Shown here one piece after another: positions 114 to 12,598 of a stretch of 15,966 nt of DNA. Source of the DNA: Promethearchaeota archaeon (GTDB taxonomy: Archaea; Asgardarchaeota; Odinarchaeia; Odinarchaeales; JBHLKK01). A program made the translations under genes and the position numbers. The stretch is taken from positions 1 through 15,966 of the forward strand of contig JBHLPL010000040.1 in the NCBI GenBank assembly GCA_048939465.1, written 5' to 3'. The first letter of the stretch is position 1; each line of letters starts with the position of its first letter. The notes under the pieces are model-generated. The model searched no databases. It saw only the letters and a list, made by a program, of their open reading frames with translations, and was not told where the DNA came from.

Positions 114-1751
114 ATGTTGGTCGCAGTTGAGAAGAGGAGGAAAAAGAAAGAGAAGAAAAAGGAAAAGGTATTGACGGAAACTCAATCGGTCTGTCCCGAC
201 TGTTTCTTGGATGAGAAACCCAGACTTCTTACTGCAGAAATCATTGAGCGAGATGGAAAAATCTGGATACGTCGCACTTGCCCCAAGCACGGAGAAATTG
301 AGGAGCTTTACTGGGGCTCATCTAAGATGTATAAGAAGGCCAAGAAGTATGCTCATGACGGTCCTGGTATCCACAATCCTCAAATAAGAGCCGAGAATCC
401 TCTATGCCCTTTAAGCTGTGGTTATTGTGGAATTCACAAGAGCACCCCTGCCTTGGGAAACCTTGTGGTCACGAATCGATGTGATCTGAATTGCTGGTAC
501 TGTTTCTTTTTTGCAGAAAAGGCGGGATACGTATACGAACCTACGCTTGAGCAAATCAGAGAGATGGTTCGGAATTTTAGAAGGGTACGGCCTTCTGCTG
601 GAAAAGCGCTCCAGATTACTGGCGGAGAGCCCGCCATGAGGGATGATATTATTGACATTGTAAATCTGGTCAGGGAAGAAGGGATTACCCACCTCCAGTT
701 CAACACCGATGGCGTAAAGCTTGCTACCGATCCCGAGTTAGCTTCAAAACTCAGAAAAGCTGGAGTGAATACCCTTTACTTAAGCTTTGATGGCACAACG
801 CCCAAAACCAATCCCAAGAATCACTGGGAAGCACCGTACGCAGTACAAAACTGCAGAAAAGTGGGTTTGGGTGTTGTTTTTGTACCGACTGTTATCAGAA
901 GCGTAAATGACGGTGACTTAGGTAACATAGTTCGCTTGGCGTTCGATAACATTGACGTCGTCCGTGGCGTAAACTTTCAGCCGGTTTCCCTGACAGGCAG
1001 GATTGCACGTAGAGAGCGAAGTAAGCTTAGAATCACATCTCCTGATGTGATCAAAATGATAGAAGAGCAGACTGAGGGCCAGATAGCAAGAGAAGACTGG
1101 TATACCTGTCCAGTCACAACAGGCATCACCCATCTCGTCCAAGCTCTAACCGGGAGAACACAATTCGAACTTACAAATCATTTTGCCTGTGGTCTGGCAA
1201 CATACGTTTTCAAAGACAACGGCAAGTTGATACCAATAACAAGGTTTGTTGATGTGGCTGGTTTCGTTGAATACGTCAATGAGAAAGCCAGTGAACTGAA
1301 CTCCGGAAAGAACAAGTTGATTACTTCTTTGAAGATACTTCTCAATCTCAGGAGATTTATTGATAACAAACAGAAGCCCAAATATCTGAAACTTTGGAGG
1401 CTTCTCATAAAAGTCCTGCTGCGACATGACTATAGCGCTCTGGGTTCGTTCCACACTAAATGTATACTCCTTGGAATAATGCATTTTATGGATCTTTATA
1501 ATTATGATGTGGAACGAGTCAAGCGATGCAACATAGTCTATCTTTCTCCAGACGGCAGAATAATTCCATTCTGCGCATTCAATACACTGTCAATGCTCTA
1601 TCGAGATAAAATACAATTAAGGTACGGCCTACCCATAGAAGAGTATGGAAAGGTCCGAGGCGCTGATTTGAAAGCAGATTTGTATAGAAGAGACTTGAAA
1701 TCACTGAGGAGTGGAGAGATATATCAGAAATTCTATAGCGCAGTGAATTAA
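114..1751 (+). CDS. tes: Tetraether lipid synthase Tes / GDGT-MAS (MJ0619-family radical SAM enzyme)
   Basis: N-terminal CPDC...CPKHG metal site, auxiliary CPLSCGYCGIH motif, radical SAM CxxxCxxC (CDLNCWYC), ITGGEP, and C-terminal FMDLYNYDVERVKRC...DGRIIPFCAFN, all characteristic of the MJ0619/Tes family. Short Lys-rich N-terminus. Confidence 0.9.
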   Translation: MLVAVEKRRKKKEKKKEKVLTETQSVCPDCFLDEKPRLLTAEIIERDGKIWIRRTCPKHGEIEELYWGSSKMYKKAKKYAHDGPGIHNPQIRAENPLCPLSCGYCGIHKSTPALGNLVVTNRCDLNCWYCFFFAEKAGYVYEPTLEQIREMVRNFRRVRPSAGKALQITGGEPAMRDDIIDIVNLVREEGITHLQFNTDGVKLATDPELASKLRKAGVNTLYLSFDGTTPKTNPKNHWEAPYAVQNCRKVGLGVVFVPTVIRSVNDGDLGNIVRLAFDNIDVVRGVNFQPVSLTGRIARRERSKLRITSPDVIKMIEEQTEGQIAREDWYTCPVTTGITHLVQALTGRTQFELTNHFACGLATYVFKDNGKLIPITRFVDVAGFVEYVNEKASELNSGKNKLITSLKILLNLRRFIDNKQKPKYLKLWRLLIKVLLRHDYSALGSFHTKCILLGIMHFMDLYNYDVERVKRCNIVYLSPDGRIIPFCAFNTLSMLYRDKIQLRYGLPIEEYGKVRGADLKADLYRRDLKSLRSGEIYQKFYSAVN

Positions 1752-3507: not shown

Positions 3508-4242
3508 CTACAGAATCAAAATACCCTCTTCTGTTATGTCGAAGTTGTGGATTCTTATACTGTGAGAAGTACCCCTCATTTTCCTTACCATCAACGTGCG
3601 TGCAAATTTCTCTGATGTTTTTTCCAATCCAAGCACTATTATGCCATCTGCTATGAATTGCTCAACATCGAAGCGACTGAGTTTATCGCTCCCTCCTGGA
3701 ATCTCCGTAACTATGAATGATGTACAATCGAGCTGGGCCACGCCGTAACAGAAACGCTGTATATCTCGTCTTAGCTCAAAGAGATTATCATATTGATAGG
3801 CCAGGGGGACTATGGAATCCAGCACAAATCTCTTTGCTCCGACCTCTCCTACGACACTTGCAGCCTTGTAGAGCATAGCATCTATTTCGTTCCTTCTCAG
3901 AATATATTTCTCTGCAGAGGGAGCAGATATCCTTGTGCTTATTGCATCTATTATGGCAAGTTTTCCTTCTTCTTCCAGCTTATCTAAGTCCCATTTGAAA
4001 GCTGAGAAGTGATTCTTCAGTTTACTGGGAGTTTCATCCATCGCGATGTAGACTCCCGGCTCGTCATAGTCCACGATTCCCTTGTAAATGAATTGCATAG
4101 CAAATATGGTTTTTCCTGTTCCTGTATTTCCGGTGAGCAGGTATGTTCCATCTCTTGGGATTCCGCCGTTGATTAGCTCATCCAAACCAGGTACTCCCGT
4201 TGGGACTCTTCTTTCAATTTCCATATGGCTTTTGTCACTCAT
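3508..4242 (-). CDS. Single-domain KaiC/RAD55-like RecA-superfamily ATPase (COG0467-type)
   Basis: RVPTGVPGLDELINGGIP, Walker A GNTGTGKT, Walker B FVLDS, C-terminal VRKMRGT arginine-finger motif. The ATG at 4242 sits 6 nt after a GGTGA ribosome-binding site. Confidence 0.9.
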   Translation of the reverse strand: MSDKSHMEIERRVPTGVPGLDELINGGIPRDGTYLLTGNTGTGKTIFAMQFIYKGIVDYDEPGVYIAMDETPSKLKNHFSAFKWDLDKLEEEGKLAIIDAISTRISAPSAEKYILRRNEIDAMLYKAASVVGEVGAKRFVLDSIVPLAYQYDNLFELRRDIQRFCYGVAQLDCTSFIVTEIPGGSDKLSRFDVEQFIADGIIVLGLEKTSEKFARTLMVRKMRGTSHSIRIHNFDITEEGILIL

Positions 4243-4253
4243 TTCCAATCACC

Positions 4254-4680: not shown

Positions 4681-5814
4681 CTACCATAAATCCTCGATTT
4701 TCTCCAGAGCCTGCAACACATTCAATTTTTTCAGATATTTTGGATCAAACTGCCTTTGCAGGAGCTCTTGAGCGATTATGCCTCGAATTCTGTCCGTCTT
4801 CTTTATCAGATGTGGAATTACCAACCCCTCAGAACTAGCAACTGCTAACAAGAGGGGTATAAGAACGGGTGATTCTCTAATCTTGGAGGCATCTACTTTC
4901 ACCTCAAGACCTATGGACGCTTCTTTTCCCATCTTCTTTATGCTTTGGATGTCTGCAACATAGTCCCTCGAGGAAGCAACCATGGGACCTGTTTGAACCC
5001 GGTACCTTCCTTTAGTAGTGAACGAGTAAATCTGGACAATCTCTCTTCGGACAAGATATCTCAGAATCGATATTAGAGTATTTGGATCCAAGTTCATTAT
5101 GACTTCAAGTTCCTGAAAATTCAACACATCTCTTTTGAGTGAATTGATCAAAAGGTTGAAATCTTCGATGGTCAGTTGATTGCTTTCCAGAAAGACTCTG
5201 AAACCTATCGATTCGTTGTCTATCTCTCTGCCTCTTGTCCTATTATTCAAGGTGAACAAGTACTTGCTGGGCGTATTAATAAGGTGGAACCTAGACGGTA
5301 GAAAGTTGATGGGTGATATCATATACTCTCGCAGATAGTAATGAAAAATATCTACTATTTCCTCAACGGTGTCTGGGTTTCCTTTCCAGGTCCTTAGAAT
5401 CTTTTCGTAGCTTTTTTCGACTTTTTCTATTATGAGCTTGAGTTTCTGTTGAAACGAGGGAACTGCCCGATCCACTATCGCGCCTATCGTCAGGTATTCT
5501 CCGCTCTCACAGAGGATTTTCCTTCTCCCAAAATCAATTATCCTGAGCGGGTGTTCTTCTTCAAATATCTCTCGGGAGAAGAGAGATAACGCTGATATAA
5601 ACCCAGAAATGAGTTGTCTGTCAACCTTGAATTCTGTGGTCCCTTCGTGAGTTATCAGATAACCATGTCTATGAATCAATATGAAATCGTAAAGCTTAAA
5701 ATTCACCCTTCTTGCGTAAGGTGGTACGTCATTAACCAGCAGATTCCGTCCCGCATAGTCGTTTTCATTTCGAGGGATTCTCGCGTGGTTTTTGAATTGT
5801 CCAGAATCAAACAA
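4681..5814 (-). CDS. N-terminal longin-domain protein with a central winged-helix-like segment
   Basis: aa ~40-165 (LYDFILIHRHGYLITH...DRQLISGFISALSLFSREI...RIIDFGRRKILCE...TWKGN) follow the classical longin pattern. aa ~216-265 (LNFQELEVIMNLDPNTLISILRYLVRREIVQI) look like a winged helix. TTG start preceded by GGTGGT; a GTG at 5706 is an alternative start. Confidence 0.7.
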   Translation of the reverse strand: MFDSGQFKNHARIPRNENDYAGRNLLVNDVPPYARRVNFKLYDFILIHRHGYLITHEGTTEFKVDRQLISGFISALSLFSREIFEEEHPLRIIDFGRRKILCESGEYLTIGAIVDRAVPSFQQKLKLIIEKVEKSYEKILRTWKGNPDTVEEIVDIFHYYLREYMISPINFLPSRFHLINTPSKYLFTLNNRTRGREIDNESIGFRVFLESNQLTIEDFNLLINSLKRDVLNFQELEVIMNLDPNTLISILRYLVRREIVQIYSFTTKGRYRVQTGPMVASSRDYVADIQSIKKMGKEASIGLEVKVDASKIRESPVLIPLLLAVASSEGLVIPHLIKKTDRIRGIIAQELLQRQFDPKYLKKLNVLQALEKIEDLW

Positions 5815-5881: not shown

Positions 5882-6141
5882 TCATTGCTTCATTGCGATA
5901 ATTACACTAGAACCTGAGATTCTCGCAAACCGAAGATAGAGACTGAAACCAAACTTGGAACCAGAATGCGGCACCGTTCTTGAACACGTATTCAGGGGAT
6001 CATGAAGGGAGCTGATATTTCGAAAAGCCCTGATTGGTTGGCGACATCTTGGTTGCACTTGGGTGGCAAAATCCAAAATCTAAAAAAGGAGAGCAACAAT
6101 ATCTTCTGTTAGCAAGATAGTACCCATCCAGAGGGGATAAC

Positions 6142-7590
6142 GTGGAACAAGTATTGAGACGACTGTCTCACTATCTGTGGGAGCTACCGCAGCAAGAACA
6201 CATGTATGTCCGAGGGCTTGTGTACGGTGACATGAAGTTAGTTGAATCACTGGTCACACTAGCAAGAGGGGCAAAAGAAGAAAACGTTCTAGATAAACTA
6301 ACCGAAGCAGCATCCCTTTTTGGGGTTAGACGTGTTTTGGCTCTACCCAGTGTCCATGCGGGACTTGGCTTTCCTGAAGGAAGTATGGTTGCTTTCGGAT
6401 CTGAAGGCGTGATCAGTGTAGCGGGGATAGGCATACACTGTAACTCGGGCTTGAGGGTATTGAGTGTTCCATTGACTAGAAGTGAGGTACTATATCGGAT
6501 TGACGAGCTGGCAACCAAATTATTCGAAAAAATACCTTCAGGTATAGGTGCAAAATCACCTATGAATCTTAGTCTGGATCAAGTTGATGAAGCCATTGTG
6601 AGAGGTGCAGAATATTCGATCTCTCAAGGTTATGGATACAACGAGGATCTAAGGTTTATGGAGCATGAGGGTCGAATCACAAAAGCCGACTCCTCGACGA
6701 TAAGTAAGAAAGCCAAGAAGAGGTGTCATTCGAGAATTGGTGCGCTGAATTCCGGAAGACACTACGTAGAAATCAGATATGTTGACGAGATTTACAATAA
6801 AGAAGAGTTAGAAAAATACGATCTATTTGAAGACCAAATTCTTGTCATGATTCATAGCGGGGCAACCCCCCTATCTGATCAAATCTTCACGGACTATTCT
6901 GTTTCTCTTATCTCCGCAGCCAAAAAACACAGGATTCCTTTTCGAAGGAGGGAATTTGTATCTGTTCCCTTCTTGAGCGAGGAGGGCCAAGCATTTTACT
7001 CGGCAGTCAAGGGATGCAGTAATTGCTCATTTGCAGATAGGCAGGTTATTTCGCAACTCGTAAGAGATGTGTTCAACGACATCTTTGGTGTCTACGAGAA
7101 GGACATCAAGACCTTTTGTGATTACGGATATAACACCATAAGGGAAGAGGAACATAAAGTCGAGGGGGAGACTGCACGGTTCCTGGTTCACCGGAGAGGG
7201 ACTGTAAGGGCCCTCGGACCTAAGAACGACGAGGTCCCTAAGGAGTATAACCTCATCGGTCAACCCTTCTTTATGGGAGGTGGACTTGGAGACTATTCCT
7301 ACCTCCTTCGGGGAGACGCCAAGGGAATACCAGAGACCCTCAATACCGTTCCCTTCGATTCCGGAAGGACTATCCCCAGAATCCAGGCCAGACGGCAGTT
7401 GCGGGGAGAGGCTATACAGAAGGATTTGGCCTCTAAGGGGATATTTGTCAAAAGAAAGAGTCCTGAAACAGTGGCAGAAAACGCGATGAGTGCGTACAGA
7501 TCCTCAACCGAAGTCATGAACATGCTTGAAAACATCGGACTGGTTTCCAAAGTGACACGAATAGCGCCGCTGGTCATACTTAAGGGCTGA
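6142..7590 (+). CDS. rtcB: RtcB-family protein, full length but predicted catalytically inactive as an RNA ligase
   Basis: Colinear with archaeal RtcB from the N-terminus (LRRLSHYLWELP) to the C-terminal PLVILKG, but the key motifs are substituted: LPSVH (for MPDxH), GIHCNSG (for GYDINCG), SGRH (for SGNH), DYGYN (for DVAHN), HRRG (for HRKG) and TVPFDSGR (for STCHGAGR). GTG start after GAGGGG. Confidence 0.88.
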   Translation: MEQVLRRLSHYLWELPQQEHMYVRGLVYGDMKLVESLVTLARGAKEENVLDKLTEAASLFGVRRVLALPSVHAGLGFPEGSMVAFGSEGVISVAGIGIHCNSGLRVLSVPLTRSEVLYRIDELATKLFEKIPSGIGAKSPMNLSLDQVDEAIVRGAEYSISQGYGYNEDLRFMEHEGRITKADSSTISKKAKKRCHSRIGALNSGRHYVEIRYVDEIYNKEELEKYDLFEDQILVMIHSGATPLSDQIFTDYSVSLISAAKKHRIPFRRREFVSVPFLSEEGQAFYSAVKGCSNCSFADRQVISQLVRDVFNDIFGVYEKDIKTFCDYGYNTIREEEHKVEGETARFLVHRRGTVRALGPKNDEVPKEYNLIGQPFFMGGGLGDYSYLLRGDAKGIPETLNTVPFDSGRTIPRIQARRQLRGEAIQKDLASKGIFVKRKSPETVAENAMSAYRSSTEVMNMLENIGLVSKVTRIAPLVILKG

Positions 7591-7622: not shown

Positions 7623-8225
7623 ATGACCATCAAATATGAAAAAACGCTAAGGGCAATCTCTGTGGTCTTATCACCAACAGGAATCGCCATAATAGTCTCT
7701 GGAATTTTCTCCTTTGGGTTCCCATTGCGCGCAAGTATACTAGATCCAGTTTGGGTCTTCATACTCGGTACGATCTTCATCGGTTTTCTCCCTATAAGCG
7801 CAGTAATCTACGAACGGTCAAAAGGAAATGTTTCATTAGAAGTCCCAAACCAGGAAGAACGGACATACTTCCTTGTCTTGGCTGTCTTCTTCTATGGTAT
7901 TGGGGCCGTCATTTTTTACCTAATCCAGTGTATGATCATGTTTGTTATCTCTGCAGCCTACATTACGGTGACATCTACAGTTACGGCAGTAAATTCTAGG
8001 ACCAAGGTCAGTGTCCACGCAGCCGGCGCTGCCGGGCCTTTGACGGCTATCGTGATGGTCTACGGTATATGGACGCTCTTTGTTTATTCCATTGTCGTAT
8101 TGGTTGTCTGGGTCAGATTGGAGCTTAAGGCCCATACATCCAGTGAACTTCTAACCGGGACCATAATTGGCATAATCATGACTGTATTGACCCTTCTTCT
8201 GCTACTTCCGTTGTGGTCAGTTTAG
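7623..8225 (+). CDS. Multi-pass membrane protein, divergent PAP2-superfamily-like
   Basis: About 6 hydrophobic segments. KVSVH resembles the C2 motif (PSGH) and VRLELKAHTSSE resembles the C3 motif (SRxxxxxHxxxD). No C1 motif seen. Confidence 0.65.
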   Translation: MTIKYEKTLRAISVVLSPTGIAIIVSGIFSFGFPLRASILDPVWVFILGTIFIGFLPISAVIYERSKGNVSLEVPNQEERTYFLVLAVFFYGIGAVIFYLIQCMIMFVISAAYITVTSTVTAVNSRTKVSVHAAGAAGPLTAIVMVYGIWTLFVYSIVVLVVWVRLELKAHTSSELLTGTIIGIIMTVLTLLLLLPLWSV

Positions 8226-8502: not shown

Positions 8503-8648
8503 CAATCTCACACCAATCACTTCGAGATTAAGGCGGAAGAGTAAATCGAAAGGCAGGGTGGAAGGGCAAGGAGGGTGAGGCCGCCAACTGCATTCTACTG
8601 CTGAGTAGTGTAGAGCATCAACGCCTCTTGTTTCAAAGGGTGGGGGGC

Positions 8649-11600
8649 ATGACACGAACTCTCAAAGTCAAGAAAATCATAAAGCGCGATGGTAGAATCG
8701 TCGACTTCGATCCAGACAAGATCGCAAATGCAATCTTCAAGGCAGCCCAGGCTCTGGGCGGAAAAGACAGATCGATAGCGGTCAAACTGGCGGATCAAGT
8801 TGTATCCATCGTCGAACAAAAGTTTGGCGCCAGAAAGGTCCCCACCGTCGAAGATGTTCAAGATGTTGTTGAAACGGTTCTGATCGAAGGCGGACATGCC
8901 AAGACTGCAAAGGCCTACATCCTGTACCGACAGAAGAGAAAGGAATTGCGAGAAGCGAAGGCACTGCTTGGTGTTTATGATGACCTGAAGCTATCGCTGA
9001 ACGCTGTCAAGGTTTTGGCTGCTCGGTACTTGCGGAAAGATGAGAATCGGAGAATAATTGAGACCCCAGGTCAAATGTTTCACAGGGTGGCCAAGGCTAT
9101 AGCCAAGGTAGATCTAAATTATGGTAAGAGCGCCAGTGTGAAAAAGATCGAAGAAGAATTCTATAATATGATGGCAAGCCTGGAGTTTCTCCCGAACTCA
9201 CCGACGCTTATGAATGCAGGCACAGAAATTGGAAACCTGTCAGCCTGTTTCGTACTCCCGGTTGAAGATTCCATGGAAAGCATCTTTGATGCGGTAAAGA
9301 ATCTTGCCTTAATTCACCGAAGCGGAGGAGGAACAGGCTTTACGTTTTCGAAACTGAGACCTAAAGGTGATGTGGTCAAGACAACCGGTGGAGTTGCTTC
9401 AGGTCCTATATCCTTTATGAAGGTGTTTGATGCTGCCACCAACGTCATAAAGCAAGGCGGCAGACGTCGCGGAGCAAACATGGGCATACTGAGAGTAGAC
9501 CACCCAGACATACTCGATTTTATTGTGGCAAAGGAAAGAAATGACGTTCTTACCAACTTCAACATTTCCGTTGCAGCTACTCACAGATTCATGAAGGCTG
9601 TGAAGAATGAAGAGGATTATGAATTGATAAATCCTCGTACACAAAGAGCAGTGAAGCGCCTATCAGCTAAGAAGGTATTTGACTTAATCGTAGCTATGGC
9701 TTGGAAGAATGGCGAGCCCGGCATTATATTCATCGACAGAATTAATGAATACAATCCCACTCCTGAAATTGGGAAGATCGAGAGTACCAATCCTTGTCTT
9801 GGTGGAAACATGCTACTGTCTACTGAAAATGGACTAGAAAGATTGAGCGATATTGCTACAGAAAATTCTGACAAAGGAACAAGGATATCAACCGATAACA
9901 GGGTACCGGTCAATGCAAATGTTGGAAGACAACCACCTCTTGATGAGAACACGGAGAACGGCACAAATCTACATAATAGCGTAAGAGCTTGGAGTACTGG
10001 TGAAAAGGTTGTTTACAGGCTTGTAACAAGCGCCGGTTATGAACTTGTAGCTACACCGAATCATAGGATACTGACAACGGAAGGTTGGATAGAATTAAGA
10101 GATTGCTTAGGGAAGAAGATCCTGATACAATCGGGAGAAGGGATATTCAGTAGAAACTATAAACTACCATTCCCCGTAAAGAATGAGTTTACTGGAAAGA
10201 ATGGAAGAAGATATTCATTCTCCCTGCCTTCAGAGTGGTCAAAAGAATTGGGCTTTATTCTTGGCTGGGCAATAGGTGACGGCTGGCTGAGAGAGGGAGA
10301 TAAGGACTGTAGAATAGGATTCTCTTTTGGAGACGATGACCTAGAAGTCTTTGAACATCTTAAACCCATCCTAAATGGCTATTATGGCAGGGAGACAAAG
10401 GAAATCCAAAGAGAGAATAATACTACGCATCTTTCTTATCCCTCAAAATTCTTTGTGGATTATTTTAGAAAGCTTGGCGTTAAGCCTGTAGAAGCTATCA
10501 ACAAGGCTGTTCCGGATTCCATTTTTACTGCTACTAAGGAGGCGGTTACTGGGTTTTTGCAGGCACTCTTCACCGCAGATGGAACCATCGGAACGTACGA
10601 ACCTTCCAAGAATTACTACATAAGGCTTACGTCAAAATCAAGAAGATTGCTGAAAGAAGTGCAACTCCTGTTATTGAATCTGGGGATCAAATCGAGGATA
10701 TACAATAGATGTAGAGAATCAAGAAAAGGATTTAAGTATGTAACAAAGTCAGGCGAGAAAAGATCCTATACTCTTGACGGGATTTGCTTTGAACTAAACA
10801 TCAGTCGGGAAAACATACCGAGATTTCTGGACGAAGTCGGTTTCTTTGGAAGCCGACATGAAGAGAAAAGAAGGAAGCTGAATAGAAGGTACTATTCTGA
10901 CAAATTCGAAGATATGGTTACAGAGATAAGACCTGCCGGCAAAGCAATTGTATACGATTTTGAGGAACCAATAACACATTCAGGAATCTGTAACGGGATT
11001 GTGGTTCACAATTGCGGGGAGCAGCCTCTTTTGCCCTATGAGTCCTGCAACCTGGGTTCCATAAACCTCTCAAAAATGGTTGATGGTGGAGATGTCAACT
11101 GGAAGAAACTTGGAAGAACAGTTGAGCTAGCTGTCCACTTCCTAGATAATGTAGTAGACGCAAACAAGTATCCTCTTCCTGAGATTGAAAACATGACAAA
11201 AGGCAATAGGAAGATAGGTCTGGGTGTAATGGGCTTCGCAGACATGCTCATTAGACTCGGTATTCCATACAATTCCGAAAAAGCTCTAAAGACAGCTGAA
11301 AAGGTTATGCGTTTCATTCAAAGCGAGGGCAAGAAAGCATCTGAAGAACTTGCAAAGAAGAGAGGGGCGTTTCCAAACTTCGAGAAGAGCATATTCGGTG
11401 TAGCAGATGAACCCAAACTCAGAAACGCCACTGTTACCACAATTGCCCCTACAGGAAGCCTGAGCATAATCGCCAATTGTTCTGGCGGAATTGAGCCTCT
11501 TTTTGCAATATCCTTCGTTAGGCGAGTCATGGAAGGGGCTGAACTCATAGAGGTTAATCCAACCTTTGATGAAATAGCGAGGGTTGAGGGCTTTTACAGT

Positions 11601-12074
11601 GATGAGCTTATGAAGCGGATAGCCAAAGCAGGTTCAATTCAGCATGTGGAAGAAGTTCCTCCGGAAGTTCGGCGCATCTTTGTTACGGCTCACGATATTG
11701 CTCCTGAGTGGCACGTAAAAATGCAGGCCGCGTTTCAGAAGTATGTTGAAAATGCTGTCTCGAAGACTGCCAATCTGCCCTACGACGCAACTCCTCATGA
11801 TGTTGAAAGAATATTCTTGCTTGCGTACAGGTTGGGGTGCAAAGGCATAACTGTCTATAGGGACAGAAGTAGGGAGTCCCAGGTCATGAATATTGAGTTG
11901 CCTGAGGCCGAACACCTAGGAGATCAATCAGAAAGAGAATCAGTATCCACCAGTAGTTCTAATCCAGATCATTCTAATTCACCTGATACCTGTCCGGTGT
12001 GTGGTACTAAACTGGTCCATCAAGAGGGCTGTGTTATTTGCAGATCTTGTGGTTGGGGAGTGTGTGAAGGTTGA
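8649..12074 (+). CDS. nrdJ: Class II (adenosylcobalamin-dependent) ribonucleotide reductase with N-terminal ATP cone, an intein and a C-terminal Zn ribbon
   Basis: ATP cone (KIIKRDGR...TVEDVQDVVE...AKAYILYR), FLPNSPTLMNAG, LSACFV, GGGTG, RRGANM, STNP|CGEQPL...ESCNLGSINL, TIAPTGS, KGITVYRD, and C-terminal CPVC...CVICRSCGWGVC. ATG 8649 follows GGGTGGGGGG. About 735 aa after intein removal. Confidence 0.95.
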   Translation: MTRTLKVKKIIKRDGRIVDFDPDKIANAIFKAAQALGGKDRSIAVKLADQVVSIVEQKFGARKVPTVEDVQDVVETVLIEGGHAKTAKAYILYRQKRKELREAKALLGVYDDLKLSLNAVKVLAARYLRKDENRRIIETPGQMFHRVAKAIAKVDLNYGKSASVKKIEEEFYNMMASLEFLPNSPTLMNAGTEIGNLSACFVLPVEDSMESIFDAVKNLALIHRSGGGTGFTFSKLRPKGDVVKTTGGVASGPISFMKVFDAATNVIKQGGRRRGANMGILRVDHPDILDFIVAKERNDVLTNFNISVAATHRFMKAVKNEEDYELINPRTQRAVKRLSAKKVFDLIVAMAWKNGEPGIIFIDRINEYNPTPEIGKIESTNPCLGGNMLLSTENGLERLSDIATENSDKGTRISTDNRVPVNANVGRQPPLDENTENGTNLHNSVRAWSTGEKVVYRLVTSAGYELVATPNHRILTTEGWIELRDCLGKKILIQSGEGIFSRNYKLPFPVKNEFTGKNGRRYSFSLPSEWSKELGFILGWAIGDGWLREGDKDCRIGFSFGDDDLEVFEHLKPILNGYYGRETKEIQRENNTTHLSYPSKFFVDYFRKLGVKPVEAINKAVPDSIFTATKEAVTGFLQALFTADGTIGTYEPSKNYYIRLTSKSRRLLKEVQLLLLNLGIKSRIYNRCRESRKGFKYVTKSGEKRSYTLDGICFELNISRENIPRFLDEVGFFGSRHEEKRRKLNRRYYSDKFEDMVTEIRPAGKAIVYDFEEPITHSGICNGIVVHNCGEQPLLPYESCNLGSINLSKMVDGGDVNWKKLGRTVELAVHFLDNVVDANKYPLPEIENMTKGNRKIGLGVMGFADMLIRLGIPYNSEKALKTAEKVMRFIQSEGKKASEELAKKRGAFPNFEKSIFGVADEPKLRNATVTTIAPTGSLSIIANCSGGIEPLFAISFVRRVMEGAELIEVNPTFDEIARVEGFYSDELMKRIAKAGSIQHVEEVPPEVRRIFVTAHDIAPEWHVKMQAAFQKYVENAVSKTANLPYDATPHDVERIFLLAYRLGCKGITVYRDRSRESQVMNIELPEAEHLGDQSERESVSTSSSNPDHSNSPDTCPVCGTKLVHQEGCVICRSCGWGVCEG
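9795..11012 (+). mobile_element. Intein (406 aa) with LAGLIDADG homing endonuclease
   Basis: Starts with Cys (CLGGNMLL) right after STNP. Block B ATPNHRILT, LAGLIDADG motifs LGWAIGDG and FLQALFTADG, block F VYDF, and terminal GIVVHN followed by extein Cys+1 (CGEQPL). Confidence 0.95.
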
Positions 12075-12598
12075 AGAAATATGGGAAGCTATTGACCTTT
12101 ATTGGTACTGGAGACGGTAAAACGACAGCTGCCCTAGGCCACGCCATAAGGGCGGCAGGACACGGGAAAAGAGTCGTCGTCCTCCACTTCATGAAAGGGA
12201 GAGAAAATGTTGGGGAATATAAGTATTTCACGAGCGACGGAGAGAGGGGGATAAAGGTATACCTGTGTGGCTCTCCCCGGTTCTTGGTTACTATCGAAGA
12301 TAAATGGGAACATCTGGTTAAGGCGAAGGAGAGCTTAAAGCTTGCAAGGGAGATTCTCGCCAAGAATAGCTGTGATCTCTTGATTCTTGATGAAGTCCTC
12401 TATGCCATAAAGTACGGGTTGATACGAGAAGAGGATCTTCTGTCCTTGGTGCAGCTTCGAGGAAATACCCACATAATTCTGACTGGAAGGGAAGCCAGCA
12501 ACCGTATTCAAAAGGCGTCCGATATTGTCACTTTAATGAATGAGATCAAGCACCATTATAATGCCGACAAGACCACAATCCTTGGCCTGGATTATTAG
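12071..12598 (+). CDS. cobO: Cob(I)alamin adenosyltransferase, CobA/CobO/BtuR type
   Basis: P-loop GTGDGKTTAALG, FMKG, DLLILDEV, ILTGR, and SDIVTLMNEIKHHY...GLDY. The TTG start overlaps the nrdJ stop (TTGA). Confidence 0.9.
   Translation: MKKYGKLLTFIGTGDGKTTAALGHAIRAAGHGKRVVVLHFMKGRENVGEYKYFTSDGERGIKVYLCGSPRFLVTIEDKWEHLVKAKESLKLAREILAKNSCDLLILDEVLYAIKYGLIREEDLLSLVQLRGNTHIILTGREASNRIQKASDIVTLMNEIKHHYNADKTTILGLDY

Follow-up and report, generated by a model that had tools for sequence, protein, structure and literature searches.

Pseudoenzymes occur in most large families. Within the RtcB family of RNA ligases, extra copies such as Myxococcus xanthus RtcB1-3 and Escherichia coli RtcB2 keep their catalytic residues. 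They are active ligases or capping enzymes. These copies, E. coli RtcB2 with PrfH among them, provide a precedent for the specialization of additional RtcBs (PMC10630183, PMC9223846, PMC13166195). The protein considered here, P0001, differs from them in this respect. It is encoded in a 15,966-nucleotide stretch of DNA (hereafter, the window) that spans positions 1 to 15,966 of contig JBHLPL010000040.1 in assembly GCA_048939465.1, from a Promethearchaeota archaeon of the order Odinarchaeales, and it is probably an RtcB-derived pseudoenzyme maintained by selection. The RtcB active site is otherwise exceptionally invariant, the same in nearly all copies collected here. Full-text literature searches for inactive, pseudo or degenerate RtcB, for RtcB-like proteins, and for Asgard RtcB returned nothing relevant, with the Burroughs & Aravind 2016 survey lying outside their coverage. 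A 2023 review of RtcB does not contain the word "inactive" and mentions no inactive RtcB.

RtcB of Pyrococcus horikoshii (1UC2, 4DWQ, and 7LFQ) is a guanosine triphosphate (GTP)- and Mn-dependent 3'-phosphate/5'-OH RNA ligase, and its residue numbering is used below for the canonical sites. The first manganese ion, Mn1, is bound by His234, His329, and Cys98, and Mn2 by Asp95, Cys98, and His203. Asn202 and Asn330 touch the GTP phosphates, recognition of the guanine falls to Glu206 and Lys480, and His404 is the nucleophile (PMC9745838). The 5'-OH strand is held by Arg238, Arg190, Gln194, and Asn202 (PMC8051266), a role that cross-linking confirms for the Arg238 equivalent (PMC12135372).

Family membership and active-site substitutions

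By sequence and predicted fold P0001 belongs to the RtcB family, but it lacks the catalytic features that define the ligase, which makes annotation as a tRNA-splicing ligase unsuitable. Its reading frame begins with GTG and runs for 482 codons free of stops and frameshifts. The Pfam RtcB profile (PF01139) matches P0001 over profile positions 3-426 of 426 (E = 4.2e-97), and the score of 326.5 bits exceeds the curated cut-off of 27 bits. In a HMMER comparison, the closest solved structures are those of P. horikoshii RtcB, with whose residues 5-481 residues 5-482 align (1uc2/4dwq/7lfq; E = 1.4e-103). The two proteins are colinear at ~37% identity, with a 7-residue insertion at residues 38-44 of P0001. 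The Pfam and HMMER matches confirm the original prediction, made by a model from the DNA letters, of an intact 482-amino-acid open reading frame (ORF) colinear with archaeal RtcB.

Five distinct orthologs of the pseudo-RtcB are available: P0001, P0003 (on an SRA contig), P0004 (with the same sequence as the G001 copy), P0176 (with the same sequence as the G002 copy), and P0177 (taken from ENA). Pairwise identities are 80-90%, and the five belong to one genus and have the same substitutions and the same gene neighborhood. NCBI labels the close orthologs as coming from "Candidatus Hodarchaeota" or "Promethearchaeota" metagenome-assembled genomes (MAGs), so the window derives from an Asgard archaeon.

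Residue equivalences come from HMMER pairwise alignment, MAFFT alignment, and a profile alignment of ~170 RtcBs, all of which agree. Seven substitutions had been proposed by eye, namely D65S, D95H, C98S, N202R, H329Y, K351R, and H404F; each is confirmed by the three concordant alignments and is fixed in all five orthologs. In P0001 these positions are S70, H99, S102, R206, Y330, R352, and F405, and Ile96 is replaced by C100. The by-eye alignment was right because conserved flanking motifs (GFP.G, G.G..N.G, SG.H..E, HR.G, and SGR) anchor every site. Within one to two positions of the lost residues, the only His, Cys, or Asp residues are Cys100 and Asp406, both new. Changes beyond the earlier list are G405D (D406 in P0001), R238T (T242), S237A, G241S, E446N, and K452R. 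Residues shared with P. horikoshii RtcB comprise H67 (H72 in P0001), R190, H203 (H207), E206, H234 (H238), N330 (N331), S385, R408 (R409), and R412, together with K480 (K481); among these, R190, E206, N330, S385, R408, and R412 are phosphate or base contacts kept in the pseudo-RtcBs.

The nucleophile position is occupied by Phe405 in all five orthologs. The binuclear metal site keeps two of its five ligands (His203 and His234), with Asp95 replaced by His, Cys98 by Ser, and His329 by Tyr. Among the GTP contacts, Asn330 and Glu206 are kept, Asn202 has become Arg, and Lys480 is kept in three of the five orthologs and is Ala in the other two; Tyr451 is Phe in one. Among the contacts to the 5'-OH strand, Arg190 is kept, Asn202 is Arg, Arg238 is Thr or Asn, and Gln194 is Arg or Gly. 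The set of residues originally listed as retained (H207, H238, N331, and the terminal Lys, K481) is thus present in P0001, but its last member is not a constant feature of the clade.

With Phe at the nucleophile position, Ser in place of the bridging Cys98, and two of five metal ligands left, the substitutions are predicted to exclude canonical ligation through a His-guanosine monophosphate (His-GMP) intermediate by P0001. The earlier claim that no such intermediate can form is therefore supported, as the nucleophile and three of the five Mn ligands are replaced in five orthologs.

Selection, distribution, and origin

The 482-codon frame is intact in all five orthologs, with no stops or indels. 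The pairwise ratio of nonsynonymous to synonymous substitution rates (dN/dS) is 0.09-0.12, at dS values of 0.47-1.27 (Nei-Gojobori, six pairs). In the same genomes, the ratio is 0.06-0.105 for the exteins of the resident canonical RtcB, 0.07-0.105 for the gene upstream of the pseudo-RtcB, and 0.15-0.22 for the gene downstream. A dN/dS of ~0.1, close to that of the resident RtcB, rules out a drifting pseudogene. The very long branch of the clade (2.1 substitutions per site) and the restriction of the paralog to one genus might suggest that the gene is decaying, or that an error of annotation or alignment has hidden catalytic residues at shifted positions. Such an explanation is highly improbable given the intact frames, the low dN/dS, and the agreement of three independent alignment methods in which flanking motifs fix each site unambiguously. 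The original reading of the gene as something other than a pseudogene is borne out, and the checks on selection and on a conserved clade return substitutions common to five orthologs and ratios far from 1.

Replacement of the active site follows a consistent pattern. Sixty columns show conservation of 93% or more across 116 canonical RtcBs; in the five pseudo-copies, 33 of these are kept in all, 22 are replaced in all, and five are mixed. At 19 of the 22 replaced columns, all five pseudo-copies hold one identical residue. Within the clade, 52 of the 60 canonical-invariant columns are constrained, compared with 286 of the 402 other columns (Fisher p = 0.012, from five close sequences). The identical replacements and the column constraint point to a former active site that was rebuilt and then frozen rather than abandoned, although the column statistic, coming from five close sequences, is suggestive only. 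The exchange of more than a third of the invariant positions under strong purifying selection would mean that the RtcB scaffold can serve another purpose.

The clade is narrowly distributed. An exhaustive HMMER search of 1.84 billion cluster representatives places P0001 in one 50%-identity cluster, and the next matches are canonical RtcBs at no more than 40% identity. Among 60 related genomes, the pseudo-copy occurs only in three species of the window's genus, each of which also has a canonical copy. In the sister family of the same order (four genomes, 93-98% complete), canonical RtcB was the only form seen. Confined to one genus, the clade may have only a limited biological reach.

Sequence identity of the pseudo-copy is 34% with the resident RtcB and 39-40% with the active RtcBs nearest to it. 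In an LG+C20 maximum-likelihood tree, the long stem of the clade arises at an unresolved base. Grouping of the pseudo-copy with the resident RtcB is rejected by an approximately unbiased (AU) test (log-likelihood difference 44.6, p = 0.0006), with the usual caveat about long branches. This argues against a recent duplication of the resident gene within the genus as the source of the pseudo-copy. Its origin would be either as an old paralog or as a transferred gene that diverged very fast. The guanine-cytosine (GC) content of the gene is 0.464, compared with 0.434 for the genome, and its base composition does not indicate a recent foreign origin.

The nearest active RtcBs are P0025, P0026, and G028:C14, which match the pseudo-clade at 39-40% identity and 381-411 bits. 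In the LG+G4 tree they join it with a support of 95 in the Shimodaira-Hasegawa-like approximate likelihood ratio test (SH-aLRT), a grouping that dissolves under the mixture model. Unlike the pseudo-clade, they hold the full catalytic set. P0025 (locus L036) is labeled by NCBI as coming from a Patescibacteria MAG and has an archease gene ~3 kb upstream, and G028:C14 (locus L008) lies in an Asgard-assigned genome with 9% contamination. FastTree and LG+G4 trees also united the pseudo-clade with two other long branches, P0042 and P0135; because the LG+C20 tree separates them, this grouping is taken as long-branch attraction.

The assembly that contains the window (1.96 Mb in 152 contigs, 91% complete) also encodes a canonical RtcB. 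This resident gene (G000, contig C31:2961-5880, minus strand; loci L001/L003) is a 973-amino-acid open frame with a 480-amino-acid intein directly ahead of Cys98, which is the +1 residue of the intein. Once conceptually spliced, the resident RtcB has all catalytic residues. It belongs to the same family as P0001, has the same length, and is likewise under purifying selection, but only the resident copy has every catalytic residue. The same genome encodes archease (contig C116), RtcA, and two splicing-endonuclease genes, so the usual ligation pathway lacks no component even if P0001 is set aside. Both the second, canonical rtcB and the archease that the original prediction proposed to look for are thus present. 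The intein is found in G000 and G002 (L038) but is missing from G001 (L037), whose gene is 90% identical apart from this, so its presence differs among species of one genus.

Candidate functions of the remodeled pocket

Having lost the reactive His and metal ligands, yet being kept by selection, the pseudo-RtcB has most probably taken on a function distinct from RtcB-type ligation. Three models of that function can be considered: a binder, a new enzyme, and an archease-linked regulator. The preferred model, given a probability of about one half, is that P0001 is a non-catalytic, metal-independent binder of RNA 3'-phosphate ends, RNA 2',3'-cyclic-phosphate ends, or a nucleotide. The remodeled pocket would hold such a phosphate-bearing ligand metal-free and without turnover. 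The pocket lacks two acidic metal ligands or partners (D65S and D95H), and an Arg is introduced at Asn202, the site of the alpha-beta phosphate contact. This residue, Arg206, could stand in for the lost cation and for Asn202, and Arg409, Arg413, Arg194, Asn331, and Glu210 (P0001 numbering) are retained. With the 5'-OH-strand loop (S237, R238, and G241) lost, the pocket would no longer join a second strand. P0001 may therefore act as an end-binding, sequestering, or sensing factor beside the genuine RtcB/archease/RtcA system. If so, it would be a natural tool to separate RNA-end or nucleotide binding from catalysis.

The structural model is compatible with such a pocket's scaffold. An AlphaFold2 model of P0001, built from a 73-sequence alignment, has a mean predicted local distance difference test (pLDDT) score of 95 and a predicted template modeling (TM) score of 0.94. 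Foldseek superposes it on P. horikoshii RtcB bound to GMP and Mn (4dwq) with a TM score of 0.95 and a root-mean-square deviation of 1.5 Å; against human RTCB the TM score is 0.96, and all 16 significant Foldseek matches (E <= 0.001) are RtcBs. The TM score of 0.95 to the GMP-bound P. horikoshii enzyme supports the earlier claim of a retained fold, in the sense of compatibility with the RtcB fold rather than of independent proof, since the alignment behind the model is mostly canonical.

One argument in the original prediction, that the added Arg residues suit RNA binding, proves weak, since R238 has disappeared, Q194R varies within the clade, and the net charge shows no increase. The isoelectric points of the clade, 6.6-8.1 compared with 8.2-9.05 for canonical RtcBs, lead us to reject extra Arg as a sign of RNA binding at the level of whole-protein charge.

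Several further observations weigh against a non-catalytic binder. The composition of the alignment behind the model is one of them. The 5'-OH-strand contacts N202 and R238 are lost, and the guanine contacts vary within the clade at Lys480 (Ala in 2/5) and Tyr451 (Phe in 1/5), which makes guanine-specific binding by the pseudo-RtcB doubtful. The clade consists of five close sequences from one genus, which limits the power of its conservation statistics. The sequencing runs that bear the gene are DNA only, from mangrove and sediment metagenomes, with no RNA runs listed. Finally, the fixed His99, Cys100, Tyr330, and Asp406 are chemically competent and would fit a new catalytic center equally well.

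The last of these points leads to the main rival, a less probable explanation in which P0001 is a neofunctionalized enzyme. A rebuilt center of His99, His207, His238, and Tyr330, possibly with Cys100 and Asp406, would carry out chemistry other than His-GMP formation, using a different metal or nucleophile; it might hydrolyze phosphoester or cyclic-phosphate ends, or work through an intermediate linked to Tyr or Asp. The two original metal-binding His residues are kept, and the changes of Asp95 to His with a new fixed Cys adjoining it, of His329 to Tyr, and of Gly405 to Asp are identical in all five orthologs. Old active-site columns are also more constrained than the rest of the protein, and changes of function typically leave the pattern seen here, a very long stem and then strong purifying selection. 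Against this, Ser, which binds metals poorly, now stands in place of the bridging Cys98, and Phe occupies the nucleophile position. No observation puts Cys100 in the site; the canonical residue there, Ile96, is not reported as a ligand (PMC9745838). No adjacent gene points to a pathway. The more specific proposal that such a new site performs a metal-dependent or covalent RNA-end reaction, of a kind not known for RtcB, is unlikely. If it were true, a new RtcB-fold active site would have emerged among the archaea that are named as the nearest group to eukaryotes.

It is similarly improbable that P0001 is a regulatory partner or decoy that binds archease or RtcB substrates and tunes the activity of canonical RtcB, an arrangement that could expose a regulatory layer on archaeal RNA ligation. 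The genome encodes both archease and canonical RtcB elsewhere, and archease normally puts an acidic tip into the basic pocket of RtcB (PMC10944509). A predicted co-fold of pseudo-RtcB with archease weakly favors an interaction, with a score of 0.55 (runs 0.48-0.71), whereas none of three controls exceeded 0.00; at least 82% of contacts are shared between the runs, and the pLDDT of the partner is at least 86. Of 80 solved complexes, 58 attain the pass mark, as do 2 of 110 mismatched pairs. Passes at 0.60 or below, however, comprise only 7 of the 80 solved complexes and both of the passing mismatches, and a pass at this level is rated as likelier wrong than right unless a strong prior exists. 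Moreover, the human RTCB-Archease complex has been solved (8odo/8odp), and the score may reflect likeness rather than binding. The contact in the human complex runs via the active-site Mn, which Asp51 of archease coordinates (PMC10944509), whereas this metal site is dismantled in the pseudo-RtcB. As a homologous complex has been solved and an Mn-mediated contact is hardly possible for the pseudo-RtcB, the co-fold score is given little weight. The archease gene also lies on another contig, unlinked to the pseudo-RtcB gene.

Locus organization and other atypical RtcBs

The features of the locus are collected in Table 1. All orthologous loci have the same order: a divergent 377-amino-acid gene, the pseudo-RtcB, a 200-amino-acid membrane protein, and a ribonucleotide reductase. 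The family of the membrane protein, P0174, is also found in many Asgard genomes that lack the pseudo-RtcB. Residues ~40-160 of the divergent gene product, P0175, match paralogous frames in nearly every Asgard genome searched, with up to 12 per genome among the matches listed, which suggests an expanded Asgard domain family; this family has no Pfam match at E <= 5. Pfam and NCBIfam searches with the flanking P0174, P0175, and a 155-amino-acid ORF gave no match. Because the homologs of P0174 and P0175 elsewhere in Asgard genomes are not adjacent to any RtcB, the neighborhood provides no functional link. No Rfam families at gathering score and no tRNAs were found in the window.

Table 1. Features of the pseudo-RtcB locus, in window coordinates; canonical residues follow P. 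horikoshii numbering.
Feature	Position	Strand	Remarks
P0175, 377-amino-acid gene, divergently transcribed	4681..5814	-	Syntenic; N-terminal domain multi-copy across Asgard genomes
Block conserved across species: A/T-rich promoter-like stretch and GGGGGGAT Shine-Dalgarno-like motif	6070..6141	+	Ahead of the conserved GTG; putative function; from alignment of three orthologous intergenic regions
Pseudo-RtcB gene, P0001	6142..7590	+	482 amino acids; RtcB fold over full length
Codon S70, for Asp65	6349..6351	+	Ser in 5/5 orthologs
Codons H99-C100-N101-S102, for D95-I96-N97-C98	6436..6447	+	HCNS fixed in 5/5 orthologs
Codons R206-H207	6757..6762	+	Asn202 to Arg, metal ligand His203 kept; alignment; roles PMC9745838, PMC8051266
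Codons H238 to T242	6853..6867	+	His234 ligand kept, S237-R238 loop replaced (A241, T242); alignment; PMC8051266, PMC12135372
Codons Y330-N331	7129..7134	+	Mn1 ligand His329 to Tyr, Asn330 kept; alignment
Codon R352, for Lys351	7195..7197	+	Alignment
Codons F405-D406, for nucleophile His404 and Gly405	7354..7359	+	FD fixed in 5/5 orthologs
Codon K481 (guanine-O6 contact Lys480)	7582..7584	+	Kept in P0001, Ala in 2/5 orthologs; PMC9745838
P0174, 200-amino-acid multi-pass membrane protein	7623..8225	+	33 nucleotides past the pseudo-RtcB stop; syntenic in all orthologous loci

Among the ~170 collected RtcB matches, 116 have the full catalytic set, and the remainder are mostly fragments. At least six other, mutually unrelated RtcB-family proteins without His404 occur among the best 150 database matches. 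In P0096, P0135, P0152, P0154, P0160, and P0166, the position is occupied by Tyr, Ser, Val, Cys, Arg, and Ser, respectively. Most of the six differ at further catalytic positions; P0160 retains all five metal ligands, and one of the six is a "hypothetical protein" of a Cloacimonetes MAG. Loss of the nucleophile thus seems to recur across RtcB lineages, as expected if pseudo-RtcBs, which are so far unstudied, arise repeatedly.

Another Asgard genome has as its only RtcB found the gene L013 (G048:C58:3576-5036), which carries a 9-codon insertion directly after Asp65. The insertion contains an in-frame TGA (LPDT*RESPHLREAHQGYG), which could reflect an assembly error, a disruption, or recoding.

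Elsewhere in the window, a radical S-adenosylmethionine (SAM) protein with an HMPTM-type N-terminal zinc ribbon (114-1751, plus strand) and a KaiC-like ATPase (3508-4248, minus strand) have no evident link to the RtcB paralog. Downstream of P0174, positions 8628-12074 of the plus strand encode the large subunit of a class II-type ribonucleotide reductase, with an ATP-cone and barrel, split by an intein that contains a LAGLIDADG homing-endonuclease domain. A CobA/BtuR corrinoid adenosyltransferase comes next, at 12071-12598.

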